From: Sulfurimonadaceae bacterium | Lineage (GTDB): Bacteria > Campylobacterota > Campylobacteria > Campylobacterales > Sulfurimonadaceae | Length of the DNA stretch: 40,561 nt | Reading direction: 5' to 3' | Assembly (NCBI GenBank): GCA_041571435.1 | Contig: JBFFUI010000017.1 | Coordinates: 1 to 40,561, forward strand | Shown: positions 3,060 through 27,130 of the stretch, piece after piece | How the letters are laid out: each line of letters begins with the position of its first letter | Numbering within the stretch: position 1 is the first letter of the stretch | Notes under the pieces: model-generated | What the model was told of the DNA's origin: nothing | Databases searched by the model: none | The model's input: only the letters and a program-made list of their open reading frames with translations | Program-made: the position numbers and the translations under genes

Positions 3060-4040
3060 ATGAACAACATAGCGATTTTATGCTCTGGCGGCGATGTTTC
3101 GGGCATGAACCCCGCCATCAAACACTTTGTCGAATACAGCCTGGCAAAAGGGCTTAAGCCCTTTTTGGTCTATGACGGGTTCGAAGGCCTTATCGATAAC
3201 AAGATCGTTAGTGCGGGTTATACCGATGTGAGCGGTATCATCAACCGCGGCGGGACAAAGATCGGATCGGCCCGGTCTCAACGCTTTTTTGACCCGGAGT
3301 TTCGAAAGCAGGCCAAAGCTAACCTGGACAGTCATGGTATAGACAAACTGGTGGTCCTGGGCGGTGACGGCAGCTTCCGCGGTATGGAACTTTTCTACAA
3401 AGAGCACGGGATTGCCTTCACGGGGATCCCGTCGACGATCGATAACGACATCGTGGGGACCGATTACTGCCTGGGCGTTGACACGGCGCTCAACATCATA
3501 CGTGAAGCACTCGATGCCATCCGTGATACTGCGGCTTCGTTCAAGCGGGCTTTCGTGGTCGAGACGATGGGACGTGATTGCGGCTATCTGGCACTGGTAT
3601 CGGGACTTACCTCCGGGGCGGAGCTCTGTCTGATCCCGGAGATCCCGTACGACCTGAGCCATTATGAAACGAGGTTCAAGCAGGATCTCGCCGAAGGACG
3701 CCGTTATTTTCTGGCAGTCGTATCGGAGGGGATCAAAGAGGATTCAGAAGCAATCGCAGCGTGGTTTGAAGAGAAGATCGGCGTCGAATCACGGGTAACG
3801 GTTCTCGGACATATCCAGCGCGGGGGCAACCCGAGCAGCAGAGACCGTTTGATGGCCTACCGCTTTGTCAACTTCGGGATCGACGGTCTATTGGCGGGCG
3901 AGAGAGACAAGATCAGCTGCTATAACAACAGCCGTTTTAACTACAAATCGATAGCGGATGTCGCCAACAAGGTGCATGAGATCGAGCCGTCGCTGCTCAA
4001 GCTTGCCAGTGCCTGCCTGACCTGTGCAAAAGAGGCTTAA
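3060..4040 (+). CDS. pfkA: ATP-dependent 6-phosphofructokinase
   Basis: SGGD..GMN, GGDGS, TIDND, ETMGR and LGHIQRGG motifs. Confidence 0.95.
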   Translation: MNNIAILCSGGDVSGMNPAIKHFVEYSLAKGLKPFLVYDGFEGLIDNKIVSAGYTDVSGIINRGGTKIGSARSQRFFDPEFRKQAKANLDSHGIDKLVVLGGDGSFRGMELFYKEHGIAFTGIPSTIDNDIVGTDYCLGVDTALNIIREALDAIRDTAASFKRAFVVETMGRDCGYLALVSGLTSGAELCLIPEIPYDLSHYETRFKQDLAEGRRYFLAVVSEGIKEDSEAIAAWFEEKIGVESRVTVLGHIQRGGNPSSRDRLMAYRFVNFGIDGLLAGERDKISCYNNSRFNYKSIADVANKVHEIEPSLLKLASACLTCAKEA

Positions 4041-4768
4041 AGAGCAACCTCTCTGAAGTCGCTGCGGGTATTTGGTATGGGTCTGTTCGAGATGCCGCGC
4101 AGGCTGTAGACAAAAGAGATCTTCGGTCTGTCGGTGGTGTTTTTGTTGGCGTAGTGCAGCGTCTTGGCATGAAACAGTACGACGTCGCCTTTTTGCAGGT
4201 TGAAATGAACGCGATTGGCGATGATCGCCTGGTTTTGCGGCAGATCGTCTCTGAAAGCGGACTGTTCGTCAAACTGCTCGGGTGAGAATGTCATCTTATG
4301 GGTGCCGGGTATAAACTCCAGCAGACCGTTTTCAAGGAACTCGTCATCCAGGCTGAGCCAGACGCTCAGGAGATTGTCGTTTTCGTAGTGCCAGTAACGG
4401 ATATCCTGGTGCCAGGTCGTCACAGAGCTGATGTGCGGAAGCTTGGTCATGATGGAGTTGTGGTGCGCAAGCAGCAAAACAGGCGGTTCGCCCAGTAGCT
4501 GTTCTAACATAGACCGTATTTCCGGGTTGGTCATCCACTGTGCGAAGAGCGGCTCTCTGTCATAGACCTGACGCAGACGGCGTGTGGTCTTGGAGTCGCA
4601 CTCTTTTTGCAGGTACTCCTCTTCACTCTCGATCGGTTCGATCTGTTCATAGAGATGTTTTGCCGCAAGTTGGTGGATCTCATCGCAGAGCTGATGGCTG
4701 GCAAACTGTTTCAATAGAAGAAAGCCGTTGGTATGAAAGTCGTTGATCTGCTGGGTCGTTAGTTTCAT
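4037..4768 (-). CDS. Phytanoyl-CoA dioxygenase (PhyH) family Fe(II)/2OG dioxygenase
   Basis: WHQD...H facial triad, NGLLEFIPGTH, GDVVLFH..TLH. Start moved to ATG 4768 (MKLTTQQ, AAGGG SD); the ORF track begins at 4840. Confidence 0.88.
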   Translation of the reverse strand: MKLTTQQINDFHTNGFLLLKQFASHQLCDEIHQLAAKHLYEQIEPIESEEEYLQKECDSKTTRRLRQVYDREPLFAQWMTNPEIRSMLEQLLGEPPVLLLAHHNSIMTKLPHISSVTTWHQDIRYWHYENDNLLSVWLSLDDEFLENGLLEFIPGTHKMTFSPEQFDEQSAFRDDLPQNQAIIANRVHFNLQKGDVVLFHAKTLHYANKNTTDRPKISFVYSLRGISNRPIPNTRSDFREVAL

Positions 4769-23087: not shown

Positions 23088-25364
23088 CTAGCGAAGCTTT
23101 TTTCTAACGATTTTCACCGCTTCGACCATGTTGATGAGACTTGGTTTGACCTCTTCCCATTTTCTTGTTTTAAGACCGCAATCCGGATTTATCCATAACT
23201 GCTCTTTTGGAAGTACCTCTAAGAGAAGCTCTATCTGCTGTACCATCTCCTCAACAGTTGGCACACGCGGAGAGTGGATATCGTAGACGCCCGGACCTAC
23301 CTCCTGTCTGTAGCCTACCTCCTGAAAAATCTTCAGCAGTTCATTTCCACTGCGTGCCGTCTCTATGGAGATGACATCCGCGTCCATTGCCTCGATGGTT
23401 TTGATGATGTCGTTAAACTCGCTGTAGCACATGTGGGTGTGGATCTGCGTCTCTTTTTTGGCACTGCTTACCGAGATCTTGAAGTCTCTCACTGCCCAGT
23501 TCTCATACTCGGCTATCTTTGTTTTGCGCAGAGGATACCCCTCTTTAAAGGCCGCTTCGTCCACCTGGATCATCTTGATACCGGCAGTCTGCAAGTCCTC
23601 TATCTCATCGCTGAGTGCCACGGCAATCTGTTTGGAGACCTCGCTTCTTGGCATGTCGTCGCGCACAAATGACCAGTTGAGGATGGTCACCGGACCGGTA
23701 AGCATCCCCTTCATGATCTTTTTTGTTTTGCTCTGCGCATAGCTTATCCACCTCACCGTCATCGCTTCCGGACGGCTGATATCACCGTAGATAAACGGCG
23801 GTTTGACACATCGGCTTCCGTAGCTCTGCACCCAGCCGTTCTGGCTGAACCCGTACCCGCTTAACTGCTCGCCAAAATACTCCACCATGTCGTTACGTTC
23901 CGGCTCGCCGTGGACAAGTACCTCTAAGCCGCACTCCTCCTGAAACGCCACACACTCGTCGATGTAACCTCTCATCTCCTGCTCATAGGCCTCCCGGGTT
24001 ATGGTCTGTGCTTTATAGTCGCTTCGGGCTTTGCGGATCTGCGGTGTCTGAGGAAAGGAACCTATGGTCGTCGTCGCCAAATCGGCATACCCCAAGAGTT
24101 CCCTCTGGAGTTGTATACGCTCTTCAAAAGCACCTTCGCGTTCAAATCTACATAATCCGGCGACTCTCTCCTGCACAGCTTTGTCGTGGATACGCGGTGC
24201 CGTTTTTCTTGAGATGTTCGCTGCTCTATTGGCCTGTAAAAGTGCCTGATCAACACTATTGAGACCCTCTTGCCCTTTATAAAATATTTGCGAGACAAGC
24301 GAGATCTCGTCTAGTTTCTCCACCGCATATGCAAGCCAGTTTTTCAGCTCTGCATCCATCTTCTCTTCGTATTTCAGTGTAAACGGCGTATGCAGCAGCG
24401 AACACGATGAGCTGACATAGACGCGCTCTTTCGGAATGACTGAGGCAATTGTTTCCAAAAGGTCAACTGTTTTGTCGATGTCGTTTTTCCAGATATTGCG
24501 TCCATCGACAACACCTGCCACAAGTGTCTTTCCGCTCTGTGCGATGCTCTCGAGTGAGTCTGTATTGTCAGCCCCGTAGAGAAAATCAAGCCCTATACCA
24601 AAGACAGGTGTGTGGACAAGCACGGCAGTCGCCTCTTTTGAGTGTTCAAAGTAGCTGCTGACGACGATATCGATGTTGCTAGCGACAGAGGTGAGTGTGT
24701 CGTAGGCCGGTTTGATGAGGCTTAGCACTTTCGTGTCCAGGTCTTTGGCAAAGATAGGCTCGTCGATCTGTACTAAAACCGCTTCGTCAAGTCTGCTTAT
24801 CGTCTCTAATAGTTCAACATACAGTGGCATGATCTTGGCGTAAAGCGCGTATGTGTCACCGCCGTCGACACGCTTGGAGAGTCTCAGGTAGGTCAGCGGA
24901 CCGATGATGTTGATTTTTGGTGTGATGCCAAATGCTTTAGCCTCGTTGTACTCTGCGATGATCTTGCCGGCGTCGAGTGTATACGCATCCTCAAGAGAGA
25001 GTTCCGGAACGATATAGTGGTAGTTTGTGTTGAACCACTTTGTCATCTCCATAGCTGTTGTTGTCTTGGTCCCACGGGCCATCGCAAAATAGAGCTCTTC
25101 ATCTCTAAGCCCCCGAAATCTTTTCGGTACAGCACCCAGCATCACGGAGGTATCGAGCATGTTGTCGTAGAGCGAGAAGTCGTTGCAGCTTATGCACTCT
25201 ATTCCTGCATTACGTTGATACTCCCAGTGGCGCTGTTTCAGCTGTAAAGCTGTTTTTTGGACCTCGCTAAAGGCCGTCTCTTTTGCCCAGAAGCGCTCCA
25301 ATACTCTCTTTAACTCTCTTTGTTCCCCTATTCTCGGGAATCCTACTACGTAATTTTTTGACAT
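23088..25364 (-). CDS. metE: Cobalamin-independent methionine synthase
   Basis: GFPRIG..RELK, KWFNTNYHY, HGEPERNDMVEYF, HTHMCYSEF, WINPDCGLKTR. Confidence 0.97.
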   Translation of the reverse strand: MSKNYVVGFPRIGEQRELKRVLERFWAKETAFSEVQKTALQLKQRHWEYQRNAGIECISCNDFSLYDNMLDTSVMLGAVPKRFRGLRDEELYFAMARGTKTTTAMEMTKWFNTNYHYIVPELSLEDAYTLDAGKIIAEYNEAKAFGITPKINIIGPLTYLRLSKRVDGGDTYALYAKIMPLYVELLETISRLDEAVLVQIDEPIFAKDLDTKVLSLIKPAYDTLTSVASNIDIVVSSYFEHSKEATAVLVHTPVFGIGLDFLYGADNTDSLESIAQSGKTLVAGVVDGRNIWKNDIDKTVDLLETIASVIPKERVYVSSSCSLLHTPFTLKYEEKMDAELKNWLAYAVEKLDEISLVSQIFYKGQEGLNSVDQALLQANRAANISRKTAPRIHDKAVQERVAGLCRFEREGAFEERIQLQRELLGYADLATTTIGSFPQTPQIRKARSDYKAQTITREAYEQEMRGYIDECVAFQEECGLEVLVHGEPERNDMVEYFGEQLSGYGFSQNGWVQSYGSRCVKPPFIYGDISRPEAMTVRWISYAQSKTKKIMKGMLTGPVTILNWSFVRDDMPRSEVSKQIAVALSDEIEDLQTAGIKMIQVDEAAFKEGYPLRKTKIAEYENWAVRDFKISVSSAKKETQIHTHMCYSEFNDIIKTIEAMDADVISIETARSGNELLKIFQEVGYRQEVGPGVYDIHSPRVPTVEEMVQQIELLLEVLPKEQLWINPDCGLKTRKWEEVKPSLINMVEAVKIVRKKLR

Positions 25365-25473
25365 ATTTTTATCCTTATAATTTAAAAAGGTTCAATATAC
25401 GCTGCTCTTCATGGCATGTAGAAGGTTCACGCCAAAAAAGGACGCGTAAAAAACAGTGGTGTTATGAAAAATG

Positions 25474-25809
25474 TTAAAGGGTAAAAAGAGGTGGGTGTAC
25501 GCCCGTTCGGCGAAATGCGAAACAGACAGTGTAGTAGGGGCAGCGCGGGATAAAATGGTTTAAAAGGAGGATCAGACGTACGCGGATCTTAAAAAAACAG
25601 TTGCAATGGCAGGGCTTATCGCTCTGTAGAAGAGTCGTTGCCAGAAGATCATCGGGAGGTGACTCCTCCTCTTGTTCATCACTTGAGAGCTTTGAAAAGA
25701 AGTACTCCTGTGCAGAAGCAACCTGACTTTCGAGTCTGCCTGAGACACTGTAGGCAAGGATGGCAGAGAGACGAAAATAGTTTTTACCAAAGCCGCGAGG
25801 TCTTCTCAC
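25474..25809 (-). CDS. Putative upstream ORF/leader protein of metE (111 aa, Cys-rich, ends RRTGVHPPLFTL)
   Basis: GTG start 6 nt after AAGGA, downstream of TATAAT (25837-25842); fills most of the 510-bp gap before metE. Confidence 0.55.
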   Translation of the reverse strand: MRRPRGFGKNYFRLSAILAYSVSGRLESQVASAQEYFFSKLSSDEQEEESPPDDLLATTLLQSDKPCHCNCFFKIRVRLILLLNHFIPRCPYYTVCFAFRRTGVHPPLFTL

Positions 25810-25836
25810 TTGCCATCCTTTTTAAAAATTTGCGCC

Positions 25837-25842
25837 ATTATA
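25837..25842 (-). promoter_or_regulatory. -10 box (TATAAT) for the uORF-metE transcript
   Basis: Consensus TATAAT on the minus strand about 27 nt upstream of the uORF start. Confidence 0.65.
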
Positions 25843-25874
25843 ACCGATTTTGCAGTCTGCAGTATTGAAAAAGA

Positions 25875-26231
25875 CTATTTTCCAAAAAGTCGGGCAAAGA
25901 ACCCTTTCCCCTGCGCTTTTTTTACCATCCGGATATAGCGGTCTATCGAGGCCGCACCCACTTCGTAATCTTTAACCATCTTGTCCTTTGCACCGATGCT
26001 GACGCAAAACGGCACGGAACCGATCTCATATTTCTTGGCCAGACGCGGATTTTGTGTCACATCGACTTTGGCGATGATCGCTTCGTCTTTGAAGTAGTTG
26101 TCTAGGTGGGGCAGGTTGGCAAGCACCTCCTGGCACGGCCCGCACATCGGCGAGTAAAAATCGATAAAGATCGCTTTGTCACTGTTTTCGACCAGCTCGA
26201 CATAGCTTTCATCACTCAGTTCTATAACCAT
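25875..26231 (-). CDS. Thioredoxin family protein
   Basis: FIDFYSPMCGPC, AKVDV, cis-Pro SVP. Confidence 0.9.
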   Translation of the reverse strand: MVIELSDESYVELVENSDKAIFIDFYSPMCGPCQEVLANLPHLDNYFKDEAIIAKVDVTQNPRLAKKYEIGSVPFCVSIGAKDKMVKDYEVGAASIDRYIRMVKKAQGKGFFARLFGK

Positions 26232-27130
26232 TTAATAACCTCCACAGCAATAAATACGACACCCAGAAACATCACCGATGTCAAAAAGACCAGTGCGGTG
26301 ATATCTTTCGGTTTGCAGTTGTACAGGGATCCCAGATTGACATTGGCGACAGCCAGCGGCATGATGAGCTCCATAAACAGGATGCCTTTGATCATTGAGT
26401 CCATTTCGACCTGTGACAGCAGTGCAAAGGTGATAAGGGGAAGAAGTATGAACTTGACGCTGCTGACCCAGCCGACGAGCATGCGATTGATGGTCGTGAT
26501 CTTGACATCATAGAGATAGATCCCGAAAAGGACCAGTTGCATCACCATGGAAGCGTAGGCTCCCATCTGAAGCCCTTTTTCAACGACCTCTGATGGCTGG
26601 TAACCGAAGAGATTGAGGGCGATCGCGATAAATGCGGCCCAGATGATCGGGATCTTTAAAATGTTGATGAGAGAGGTGCGTACGTTGAAACTGCCGCGCG
26701 AGTAGAAGTAGACACCGGCGATGTAGACGAAAAAGACGTTGACCAGGTTGATGATGGTGGTGTAGGGGATACTCTCTTCACCGAAGATAGCGATTCCCAG
26801 AGGAATACCGAGATTTCCGGTGTTTCCGATCAGGGCCGAAACGGTTGCGATGGAACGCTCTTTTGTGTCTGTAAAAAGTGCACGCGCGATAATGACACTG
26901 AATGCCAGTGCCGCCATGACGATAACAAAATAGAGCGCCGGTGCATAGACGAGGGTCGTATCGATAGGGCGTTTTAACAGCCCCCAAAACGTTAAAAAGA
27001 TCTGCAGAAAGTAGACCGACAAAAGGGTGATCGTGCGGTCGTCGATCTGCTCTTTGAAGGTACGTTTGGCAATGTAGCCGACGGCAATAAAAATATAGAT
27101 GCCGAGTACGGAGATCAATATAGAGTTCAT
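26222..27130 (-). CDS. AEC (auxin efflux carrier) family transporter
   Basis: About 10 TM helices, GNTGNLGIP, MPLAV motif. Confidence 0.9.
   Translation of the reverse strand: MNSILISVLGIYIFIAVGYIAKRTFKEQIDDRTITLLSVYFLQIFLTFWGLLKRPIDTTLVYAPALYFVIVMAALAFSVIIARALFTDTKERSIATVSALIGNTGNLGIPLGIAIFGEESIPYTTIINLVNVFFVYIAGVYFYSRGSFNVRTSLINILKIPIIWAAFIAIALNLFGYQPSEVVEKGLQMGAYASMVMQLVLFGIYLYDVKITTINRMLVGWVSSVKFILLPLITFALLSQVEMDSMIKGILFMELIMPLAVANVNLGSLYNCKPKDITALVFLTSVMFLGVVFIAVEVIKWL

Follow-up and report, generated by a model that had tools for sequence, protein, structure and literature searches.

A short open reading frame (uORF) in the leader of metE, found on the minus strand of a 40,561-nucleotide stretch of DNA from a Sulfurimonadaceae bacterium (hereafter the window), is, judging from its pattern of sequence variation, a genuinely translated gene under selection at the peptide level. 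It belongs to a family of leader peptides that is spread across Campylobacterales and is new within the literature searched. On balance, and by a modest degree of preference, we regard the uORF as co-transcribed with metE, in the position of first cistron, and as encoding a cis-acting, arrest-type leader peptide, for which a corrinoid (vitamin B12) would be the most likely signal. The features of the locus are collected in Table 1. The start of metE lies 109 nt past the uORF stop, and the leader upstream of metE comprises about 465 nt. All positions proposed by a preceding sequence-only reading of this DNA, i.e. those of the TATAAT, the GTG, the AAGGA, the inverted repeat, the T7 tract and the ORF itself, proved to be correct.

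Table 1 Positions of the metE leader features in the window.
Feature	Position	Strand	Remarks
-10 box TATAAT, predicted promoter of the uORF-metE transcript	25837..25842	(-)	Begins 33 nt upstream of the uORF start
Shine-Dalgarno (SD) sequence of the uORF, AAGGA	25816..25820	(-)	A/G-rich SD-like stretch before the aligned start in most relatives compared
Inverted repeat, 5' arm AAGGATGGCA	25811..25820	(-)	Perfect 10 bp; covers the uORF SD
Inverted repeat, 3' arm TGCCATCCTT	25756..25765	(-)	Perfect 10 bp; codons 15-18 (SAIL)
Leader ORF (uORF)	25474..25809	(-)	111 codons + stop; GTG start at 25807-25809; C-terminal end RRTGVHPPLFTL
N-terminal motif P-R-G-F-G-K-N-Y-F, residues 4-12	25774..25800	(-)	Most conserved block; signal-peptide-like by homology
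Cys motif C-H-C-N-C, residues 67-71	25597..25611	(-)	C69 nearly invariant
T7 tract	25591..25597	(-)	Codons for Cys-Phe-Phe (TGT TTT TTT) within the conserved motif CNCFF
C-terminal motif R-R-T-G-V-H-P-P, residues 100-107	25489..25512	(-)	PP codons at 25489-25494, proposed pause/arrest site
Pyrimidine stretch UUUUUACCCUU, predicted anti-SD just after PP	25477..25487	(-)	Pairs with the metE SD in MFE and centroid structure, z -2.26
SD sequence of metE, AAGGA	25372..25376	(-)	AAGGAT recurs before most metE starts compared
metE (cobalamin-independent methionine synthase), proposed regulated gene	23088..25364	(-)	NCBIfam NF003556, 1058 bits, above cut-off

The sequence-only reading had proposed a translated uORF in the metE leader, and the comparison with relatives bears this out. 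In 22 conserved columns of 31 sequences, the codon-position entropy amounted to 0.38, 0.19 and 1.26 bits at positions 1, 2 and 3, respectively; the variation in the leader thus has a three-base periodicity with free third positions, and all four CCN codons are used across the family for both prolines of the C-terminal Pro-Pro pair (PP). The dN/dS of the uORF, computed on 635 usable of 2926 pairs, did not exceed 0.82, with the median at 0.33, and was below 1 in every usable pair. It is on the basis of codon-position entropy and dN/dS that we consider the uORF translated and conserved, with purifying selection, as read from the sequences, along most of the leader peptide. A start codon and an SD are present at the aligned position in relatives, with GTG or TTG used as start in 56 of 77 uORFs. 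Similarity of the leader was detectable at the DNA level in 8 and at the protein level in 32 of 41 genomes, and in 13 of the 15 best loci the frame continues without an in-frame stop inside the match; in L010, one of the two exceptions, the stop comes merely one codon past PP. Periodicity, dN/dS, the gap between DNA and protein similarity and the intact frames all stand against the explanation that the leader is a structured RNA, namely a divergent cobalamin riboswitch, in which the open frame is incidental. The length of the leader and its sharing of position and regulon with B12 riboswitches speak for such an RNA, but positions 25000-26300 gave no Rfam match at E <= 1, and we consider this explanation scarcely credible.

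The textbook example of a riboswitch is the control of metE and btuB by B12, and metE together with a TonB receptor makes up the classical B12 regulon. The cobalamin riboswitch RF00174 was found in none of the 41 and none of the 151 Campylobacterales genomes searched, while 7 of 14 control genomes scored, in agreement with the earlier suggestion that the uORF stands in place of a classical riboswitch. The family resembles RF00174 in its site in the 5' leader and in its targets, i.e. metE, a btuB-like receptor and cobamide salvage genes; it differs in that the riboswitch senses as RNA, whereas the conserved information in the family resides in the peptide. The leader peptide therefore probably does the job that is held by the B12 riboswitch in other bacteria.

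Homologues of the leader peptide were present in 82 of 151 sampled genomes of Campylobacterales and formed 261 clusters at 90% identity, 197 clusters at 50% identity and 270 genome loci, in 80 + 30 of which the gene context was checked. Synteny with metE, on which the sequence-only reading had made its proposal depend, was evident from the 15 best loci, all of which have the homologue directly upstream of metE. Classified by tblastn, 74 of 77 parsed genome loci combined an HPP-type peptide with metE. A second sample of 30 loci, classified by Pfam, consisted of 15 SPP-type peptides before Plug/TonB receptors and 15 HPP/APP-type peptides before Meth_synt_1. In the examined loci, the leader ORF was always the first gene and the downstream genes fell into just two classes, metE and TonB-dependent receptors. 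Genomes carry two paralogues, each in cis to its own target. Of 13 receptor loci, 9 had CobT, CobU or BtuF-like genes after the receptor, with several matches below curated cut-offs. The source genome of the window encodes MetH besides MetE, plus Rho. Public annotation calls the leader peptide a 'hypothetical protein'; Pfam and NCBIfam contain no family for the window peptide or its own-genome paralogue, the ESM Atlas gave no usable match for the leader peptide, and the literature searched on B12 riboswitches, leader peptides, DUF2946 and Sulfurimonas does not describe the family, which subscription journals or supplements may still hold.

The sequence-only reading had suggested Cys, Met or Zn status as a possible signal. 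This does not sit well with the paralogues that head TonB-receptor operons with CobT, CobU or BtuF genes, which point to a corrinoid. Since the subfamilies stand only before metE or before receptor operons with cobamide salvage or uptake genes, in an order without the riboswitch, the signal is probably a corrinoid rather than Cys, Met or Zn; the link to B12 is one of guilt by association, through gene context. A peptide pausing at PP in cis could as well read another signal, i.e. Co, Zn or Cu via its Cys, Sec/SRP export capacity, or TonB activity. Two observations favour such a signal, namely the Zn dependence of the enzyme MetE and the receptor operon in the window's own genome, which is without a recognisable cob gene. 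So do the copper-sensing leader peptides CruR and CutF, which are described as using Cys motifs, with some CutF-like clusters tied to Ni or Co (PMC9426467; PMC9973294), and the homology of the N-terminal half to receptor signal peptides, which recalls Sec-monitoring arrest peptides (PMC7897499). In contrast, neither the 30 Pfam-classified nor the 77 tblastn-classified loci had a sec, yidC or metal-homeostasis gene downstream, and the two downstream classes, the cob-type genes after the receptor and the lack of a CXXC or CXXXC motif next to a single conserved Cys all speak against it. We hold a signal other than B12 to be unlikely.

In the N-terminal motif of the peptide, G6, F7, K9, Y11 and F12 were invariant among 29 sequences; TonB-dependent receptors have a homologous N-terminus, and the N-terminal half of the leader peptide corresponds by homology to their signal peptide and acidic linker. 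In the Cys segment, a single Cys is near-invariant and His is not conserved likewise; CXXC and CXXXC are absent from the family. C69 was spaced 37 residues from the first Pro in all 116 HPP-type proteins with HC, and the corresponding distance was 34 residues in 40 of 44 SPP/APP types. At the C-terminus, conservation of the PP motif in relatives, another element of the earlier proposal, held without exception: [H/S/A]-Pro-Pro was kept in 213 of 213 full-length database homologues. Past PP, these homologues have a non-conserved tail of 0-40 residues, most of them <=10, with one outlier of 239 residues. PP occupies residues 106-107 of the 111 in the window peptide, which leaves 4 residues after it; across 77 loci, its position varies between residues 103 and 112. 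Minimal forms of 51-52 aa retain only the N-terminal motif and SPP, and N-truncated forms of 66 aa exist alongside them, so that the family has no upstream sensor module common to all members. The PP is also held at a narrow distance from the regulated gene, with 53-60 nt to the receptor ATG in 13 of 13 loci and, for metE, a minimum of 52 nt to the ATG and 52-90 nt in 39 of 63 loci. AlphaFold2 predicted a helix over residues 14-44 of the window peptide and in all two confident helices (pLDDT up to ~94), with a pTM of 0.39 and coil over the final 30 residues; according to this model, the leader peptide would be without a globular fold.

These properties bear on the possibility that the uORF simply encodes a small exported or membrane protein of ordinary kind, e.g. 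a corrinoid-handling accessory, which acts in trans and is merely co-transcribed. Purifying selection over most of the peptide, the signal-peptide-like N-terminus, the two confident helices and the annotation as a hypothetical protein would be expected of such a protein. An invariable first position directly 5' of two gene classes, one of them a cytoplasmic enzyme, two paralogues each in cis to its target, conservation that ends at PP with a tail of arbitrary length, the fixed PP-to-start spacing and the frequent GTG/TTG starts would not, nor would the predicted lack of a globular fold and 51-aa minimal forms that hold only the N-terminal motif and SPP. We judge a function in trans to be improbable.

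The closest known systems, by analogy, are CruR and CutF. CruR (Bp2923, DUF2946) of Bordetella pertussis is reported to have a Cys motif at fixed spacing to a C-terminal xxPP and to head a TonB-transporter operon; its ligand relieves the arrest, upon which Rho terminates (PMC9426467). The family shares with CruR the organisation as a small uORF that is first in its operon, ahead, in the receptor subfamily, of a TonB-dependent transporter, a predicted N-terminal export signal, a Cys at near-constant distance from a C-terminal xxPP near the stop, and a C>G-rich RNA, and the ligand-off logic of the CruR operon would fit repression by B12. It differs in its [HSA]PP motif without Arg as opposed to RAPP, in a CxC (x-C-N-C) with one invariant Cys as opposed to CXXC, in a Cys-Pro spacing of 37 (HPP) or 34 (SPP/APP) residues as opposed to 45 (+/- 2), in a regulon of metE and corrinoid uptake as opposed to copper, and in a short (~55-90 nt) instead of a long spacer. 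Homology to DUF2946 (PF11162) was rejected, as none of 120 family members gave a match at E <= 10 and hhalign gave a probability of 0.3% against a DUF2946 uORF from the same order (L134:1495-1764, 24.5 bits).

CutF of Rhodobacter capsulatus is presented as a nascent exported sensor whose stalling unmasks an SD (PMC9973294). [quoted passage not shown] With its 111 aa, the position of its PP and metE 109 nt downstream, the window peptide falls under the rule-based definition of CutF-like peptides (PMC9973294), a likeness by rule. Unlike in CutF, where the ligand prolongs stalling and the gene is on, repression by the ligand would be expected here; the main text of PMC9973294 has no mention of cobalamin, metE or Campylobacter.

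With the RAPP/RGPP arrest peptides (ApdA, ApdP and ApcA; SecM has RAGP), the family has in common that the protein is small and of the secretory type, carries xxPP at its C-terminus and is encoded upstream of its would-be target, and that conservation stops at the A-site Pro (PMC12992588; PMC7897499; PMC10951233). The motif does lie near the C-terminus of a small protein with an N-terminal signal, the latter judged by homology. The R-[A/G]-P-P core itself, whose Arg, placed two residues ahead of the first Pro, is described as irreplaceable (PMC12992588), does not occur: none of the 31 five-residue motif types among the 213 homologues has Arg at that position, which is taken by V, T, I, L or S, and the window motif V-H-P-P has its Arg at -5 and -6. 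Neither are the downstream genes of the family protein-localisation genes. The earlier comparison to RAPP/RGPP peptides with metal-binding Cys was apt as an analogy, with CruR and CutF as cases in point, but did not hold for the motif. Since the family motif is without the RAPP Arg, stalling may be strong or weak, and EF-P could resolve the PP without arrest.

At the RNA level, a TANAAT hexamer beginning 26-48 nt before the uORF start was found in 45 of 76 loci (shuffles: mean 11, max 20), with a mode at -33 that is identical to its position in the window. A sigma-70-like match (TCTACA-17-TATATT, 25422..25394, minus strand) between uORF and metE, one site compared to 1.3 expected by chance, could provide a separate metE start and would then count against control by the uORF. 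The inverted repeat around the uORF SD, highlighted by the sequence-only reading, does form a strong predicted hairpin in the window (duplex -17.7 kcal/mol, z -4.8), but it is common only to the window and its closest relative L040; with z < -2 in just 3 of 78 loci and a median z of 0.19, SD sequestration by an inverted repeat was rejected as a family feature and is lineage-specific. The T7 tract in the middle of the ORF, noted by the same reading, is likewise real and is not a family feature; it encodes amino acids of the peptide, and the minus strand has no terminator-like site within the leader (25365-25809).

The latter result, which leaves no terminator/antiterminator arrangement in the leader, bears on a classical attenuator that would couple metE to sulfur amino-acid supply by reading tRNA charging at the Cys codons of CHCNC. 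Such a device would be suggested by the three Cys codons inside five codons in the metE subfamily and by the role of metE in sulfur amino-acid metabolism. In the receptor subfamily, however, no more than one or two of these Cys are retained, selection extends over the peptide as a whole and is not confined to a codon run, and an attenuator would leave the invariant PP and the corrinoid-linked paralogues unexplained, which makes it very unlikely.

As to masking of the downstream SD, the predicted probability of its pairing with PP..PP+35 averaged 0.71 in the family compared to 0.47 in shuffles; with the whole leader folded, pairing of the SD with the PP region was 0.54 in the family and 0.32 in the window. 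Because the shuffle control already reaches 0.47, this predicted pairing signal is moderate and in part compositional. A universal anti-SD searched by RNAduplex was inconsistent, as only 5 of 15 metE loci had their best SD partner within ~12 nt of PP. The C/G ratio was 1.35-1.72 in the uORF, 1.6-3.8 in the spacer and 0.81 in the downstream gene.

Conservation at the level of translation, the motif, its spacing, the gene contexts and the lack of the riboswitch are observed; for the mechanism, we infer stalling, ligand, direction of control and the step of SD unmasking or Rho action. The ribosome would pause or arrest at the invariant [H/S/A]-Pro-Pro, where it would cover the pyrimidine stretch 3' of PP and free the ribosome-binding site of metE, so that metE is expressed; it may in addition shield the C-rich, G-poor RNA from Rho. 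The signal would be perceived via the upstream part of the nascent chain, i.e. the signal-peptide-like N-terminus plus the Cys 37/34 residues from PP, whereupon the pause would be relieved, the ribosome would depart and the downstream gene would be off. As a broader and more tentative proposal, which we would put at somewhat short of even chances, Campylobacterales may have swapped the cobalamin riboswitch for a leader peptide derived from the 5' end of the gene of a btuB-like receptor, in which a corrinoid is read during translation via the Cys segment at the tunnel exit and the arrest at [H/S/A]-Pro-Pro is released, turning metE and B12-uptake operons off.

Campylobacterales, including the abundant sulfur-oxidising Sulfurimonas, Sulfurovum and the Arcobacter group, thus have a translated leader at riboswitch positions where no such RNA was found. 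Even without the link to B12, [H/S/A]PP lacking the Arg is a compact, testable candidate for an arrest motif, and the family includes naturally shortened forms of 51 and 66 aa. The ligands known for arrest peptides that act as sensors are copper, amino acids, polyamines and antibiotics. If sensing of a corrinoid is true, this range would extend to a large organic cofactor, and the family would represent a second, independent solution to B12 sensing and would be without precedent as a protein-based cis sensor of an organic cofactor of such kind; the leader peptide would then also serve as a marker of B12-regulated genes in environmental Campylobacterota.

In the window, 510 nt separate the thioredoxin-family gene from metE, and the leader between them holds an upstream ORF (uORF) and several RNA-level features. 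No Rfam family matched positions 25000-26300, even at E <= 1.

Features of the metE leader and its flanking genes in the window
Feature	Position	Strand	Evidence
Thioredoxin-family gene	25875..26231	minus	PF00085, E 2e-17
TATAAT	25837-25842		sequence read
Perfect 10-bp inverted repeat	25811-25820 vs 25756-25765		sequence read
uORF GTG start, AAGGA ahead	25807-25809		sequence read
T7 tract	25591-25597		sequence read
111-codon uORF, ending RRTGVHPPLFTL	stop at 25474-25476		sequence read
metE	23088..25364	minus	NF003556, 1058 bits

At 25894-25914 (-), inside the final 40 nt of the thioredoxin-family gene and just 5' of the uORF promoter, is a hairpin with a T-run that resembles a terminator, consistent with uORF and metE being their own transcription unit. 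The -10 box was found 26-48 nt ahead of the uORF start in 45 of 76 loci, compared to at most 20 in shuffled sequence, most often at -33, which is also its place in the window; this conserved position makes the uORF the first cistron, preceded by only a short 5' UTR. One complication in the window is a sigma-70-like match between the uORF stop and metE (TCTACA-17-TATATT, 9 of 12, 25394-25422 (-)), which would bypass the uORF if active; one such match was found versus 1.3 expected by chance.

The positions that the sequence-only reading had assigned to TATAAT, Shine-Dalgarno (SD) sequence and GTG, uORF, inverted repeat and T7 tract were all correct on re-reading, and the peptide also held up in the tblastn, metE synteny and dN/dS checks that it had proposed. 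By tblastn, the leader peptide was matched in 32 of 41 related genomes, and a metE homologue followed directly on the same strand in all of the 15 best loci. The match was free of in-frame stops in 13 of these 15; in L010, one of the other two loci, the stop sits one codon past the terminal Pro-Pro (PP). DNA-level similarity of the leader was much weaker (8/41 genomes, short patches only). In a codon alignment of 31 homologues, mean entropy at codon positions 1, 2 and 3 was 0.38, 0.19 and 1.26 bits over the 22 columns with an amino acid at least 80% conserved, and all four CCN codons were used at both terminal Pro positions. The median dN/dS (Nei-Gojobori) over 77 loci was 0.33, with a maximum of 0.82, for 635 of 2926 pairs, saturated and near-identical pairs being left out, and the closest pairs gave 0.0-0.27. 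The aligned start position holds ATG, GTG or TTG (GTG or TTG in 56/77 uORFs), mostly with an A/G-rich SD-like stretch ahead. Codon-position entropy, dN/dS and the aligned start codon rule out an incidental open frame over a structured RNA; judged by its sequence evolution, the uORF is a real, translated gene.

A collection of 5.8 billion proteins contained 261 clusters of the peptide at 90% identity, none of them with a Pfam domain; the named ones, from Sulfurimonas, Sulfurovum or 'Epsilonproteobacteria', were all 'hypothetical protein'. Searching 1.84 billion representatives at 50% identity with a profile returned 197 proteins at E <= 1e-3. Among 185,579 species genomes scanned, 270 loci were confirmed; their sources are Sulfurimonas, Sulfurovum, the Arcobacter group, Sulfurospirillum and MAGs that bear a Helicobacteraceae or Campylobacteraceae label. 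Matches were present in 82/151 and 179/401 genomes of two even samples of the order Campylobacterales, and absent from three well-sampled families (0/38, 0/30 and 0/38) of the 401-genome sample. Among 29 aligned sequences, M1, G6, F7, K9, Y11, F12, P106 and P107 were invariant and G8, A19, L26, H68 and C69 at least 90% conserved (numbering of the 111-aa peptide). All 213 full-length database homologues had [H/S/A]-P-P at the profile end, followed by an unconserved tail of 0-40 residues with one outlier of 239, and across 77 genome loci PP fell between residues 103 and 112. The spacing from the conserved Cys to the first Pro was 37 residues in all 116 HPP-type proteins that have HC, and 34 residues in 40/44 SPP and APP types, the subfamilies being named by these ends. 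The AlphaFold2 model (120-sequence alignment; pLDDT 73, pTM 0.39) placed helices at 14-44 and 70-83 and coil past residue 83, so modelled, the leader peptide is without a globular domain.

For the downstream genes, 77 of the 80 best genome loci were parsed; in the other three no PP end could be read, in two cases because the contig stops inside the ORF. RR[ST]G[VTI]HPP was followed by metE in 74/77. The remaining three were SPP types, preceding a receptor, a contig end and a 606-aa signal-peptide ORF to which tblastn assigned no class. In a second sample of 30 loci, drawn with the receptor-type profile, 15 were xxSPP uORFs followed by Plug/TonB_dep_Rec proteins, and the other 15 were HPP or APP uORFs followed by Meth_synt_1. 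When longer flanks were fetched, cobamide-related genes continued past the receptor in 9 of 13 receptor-type loci, encoding CobT-type phosphoribosyltransferases (TIGR00303/PRK04447), CobU (PRK05800) or a binding protein resembling BtuF. Several of the matches score below curated cut-offs, and one locus adjoins metH. In genus g13, a btuB-like receptor gene lies directly 5' of an APP-type uORF and metE (L030 and L127, genomes G027 and G125), which places receptor, leader peptide and metE in a single cluster. At L038 (G007 contig 9, uORF region 3900-4274 (-)) the uORF frame is open into the receptor ORF, giving 791 aa; an error in the sequence or a natural fusion may explain this.

The genome of the window encodes MetH and Rho and has a second uORF copy on contig 22 (L023), whose receptor aligns end to end to the TonB-B12 model at a score well under the cut-off. 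No family was assigned to the two ORFs past this receptor, a 193-aa membrane-like one (L023:1457-2035 (-)) and one of 148 aa (L023:1014-1457 (-)): NCBIfam gave none for either, and the latter had only a weak Pfam zf-like match (E 4e-4, below cut-off). Their homologues occur again at further receptor loci and beside metH (L024), and both are candidates for uncharacterised corrinoid-handling proteins.

Elsewhere, metE, btuB-like receptor genes and genes for cobamide salvage are under the control of B12 riboswitches. The search for the Rfam cobalamin riboswitch was negative in all 41 relatives and in all 151 genomes of a sample covering 26 Campylobacterales families, and positive in 7/14 control genomes. 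Since metE, btuB-like receptor and cobamide salvage make up a B12-riboswitch regulon, a corrinoid is the most economical signal.

PMC9426467 describes CruR (DUF2946) of Bordetella as a uORF at the head of a TonB-transporter operon, with a C-terminal RAPP 45 residues past CXXC, an arrest relieved by copper, upon which Rho terminates transcription, and a signal peptide and EF-P that are both dispensable. In PMC9973294, CutF of Rhodobacter senses copper as a nascent exported protein, and its C-terminal Pro-rich motif opens a hairpin that masks an SD; neither cobalamin nor metE appears in the main text of that paper. The metE/receptor family has the same architecture as CruR and CutF but is a member of neither group: PF11162 (DUF2946) matched 0/120 members, and hhalign against a true CruR-like uORF from another genus of the same order gave a probability of 0.3%. 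The sequence-only reading was right in kind, but its Cys/Met/Zn signal was wrong, as receptor and cobamide-gene contexts point to B12, and it leaves the receptor subfamily unexplained. The Arg of RAPP-type arrest is reported to be irreplaceable (PMC12992588), whereas the metE/receptor family is without that Arg and would have been missed by the RAPP/RGPP survey of that paper. We found no description of the family in the literature searched. A 90-aa DUF2946/CruR-like uORF with CPVC, 45 residues and RAPP plus two residues, followed on the same strand by a 411-aa ORF, is present at L134:1492-1764 (-) on contig 1 of G066, and also in G111 (L135); copper-type RAPP leader peptides thus also occur in one Campylobacterales genus, separate from the metE/receptor family.

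TonB-dependent receptors of several Campylobacterales genera (L120-L125, L127, L128; for example the L120 frame starting at 394) begin with MKxPKGF(R/K)GKYFSLAAI..., then an acidic linker. These N-termini match leader-peptide profile positions 1 to about 100. In its N-terminal half, the uORF is therefore a homologue of a true signal peptide and linker, which points to an origin by duplication from the 5' end of a receptor. Conservation this high is rare among signal peptides, and the receptor motif may thus have a function of its own. Shorter variants keep different parts: uORFs of 51-52 aa before receptors retain the KGFGKNYF motif and SPP (L132:473-628 (+), L133:2757-2915 (-)), and uORFs of 66 aa before metE retain CHC...RRSG[VI]HPP with the N-terminal motif absent (L129:1974-2174 (-), L130:493-693 (+)).

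The distance from the first Pro codon to the receptor ATG was 53-60 nt in 13/13 receptor-type loci, for any uORF stop position from directly past PP to overlapping the ATG. From PP to the metE start the minimum was 52 nt, with 52-90 nt in 39/63 loci, insertions in the rest and 130 nt in the window. There, UUUUUACCCUU (25477-25487, from 2 nt past PP) is predicted to pair with the metE SD in both MFE and centroid structures (z -2.26). Over 73 loci, the mean pairing probability of the SD core with the 36 nt from PP was 0.71 (at least 0.5 in 58), compared to 0.47 after shuffling these 36 nt and to 0.54 for SD pairing in whole-leader folding (at least 0.5 in 43/73; 0.32 in the window), so the predicted signal is real, though composition accounts for part of it. 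In only 5/15 loci did a simple duplex search place the best SD partner near PP. Both uORF and spacer are rich in C and poor in G (C/G of 1.35-1.72 and 1.6-3.8, versus 0.81 in the downstream gene), a rut-like, unspecific composition.

On balance, we lean towards the uORF encoding a leader peptide that acts in cis as an arrest-type sensor for the B12 regulon. A ribosome pausing at PP would keep the downstream gene on, and the ligand, a corrinoid, would release the pause and shut the gene off via SD re-masking, Rho or both, with stalling at an Arg-less PP, corrinoid perception and the output step as putative parts of this model. Such a CruR-like polarity, in which the pause means on and the ligand off, would fit the expected physiology.
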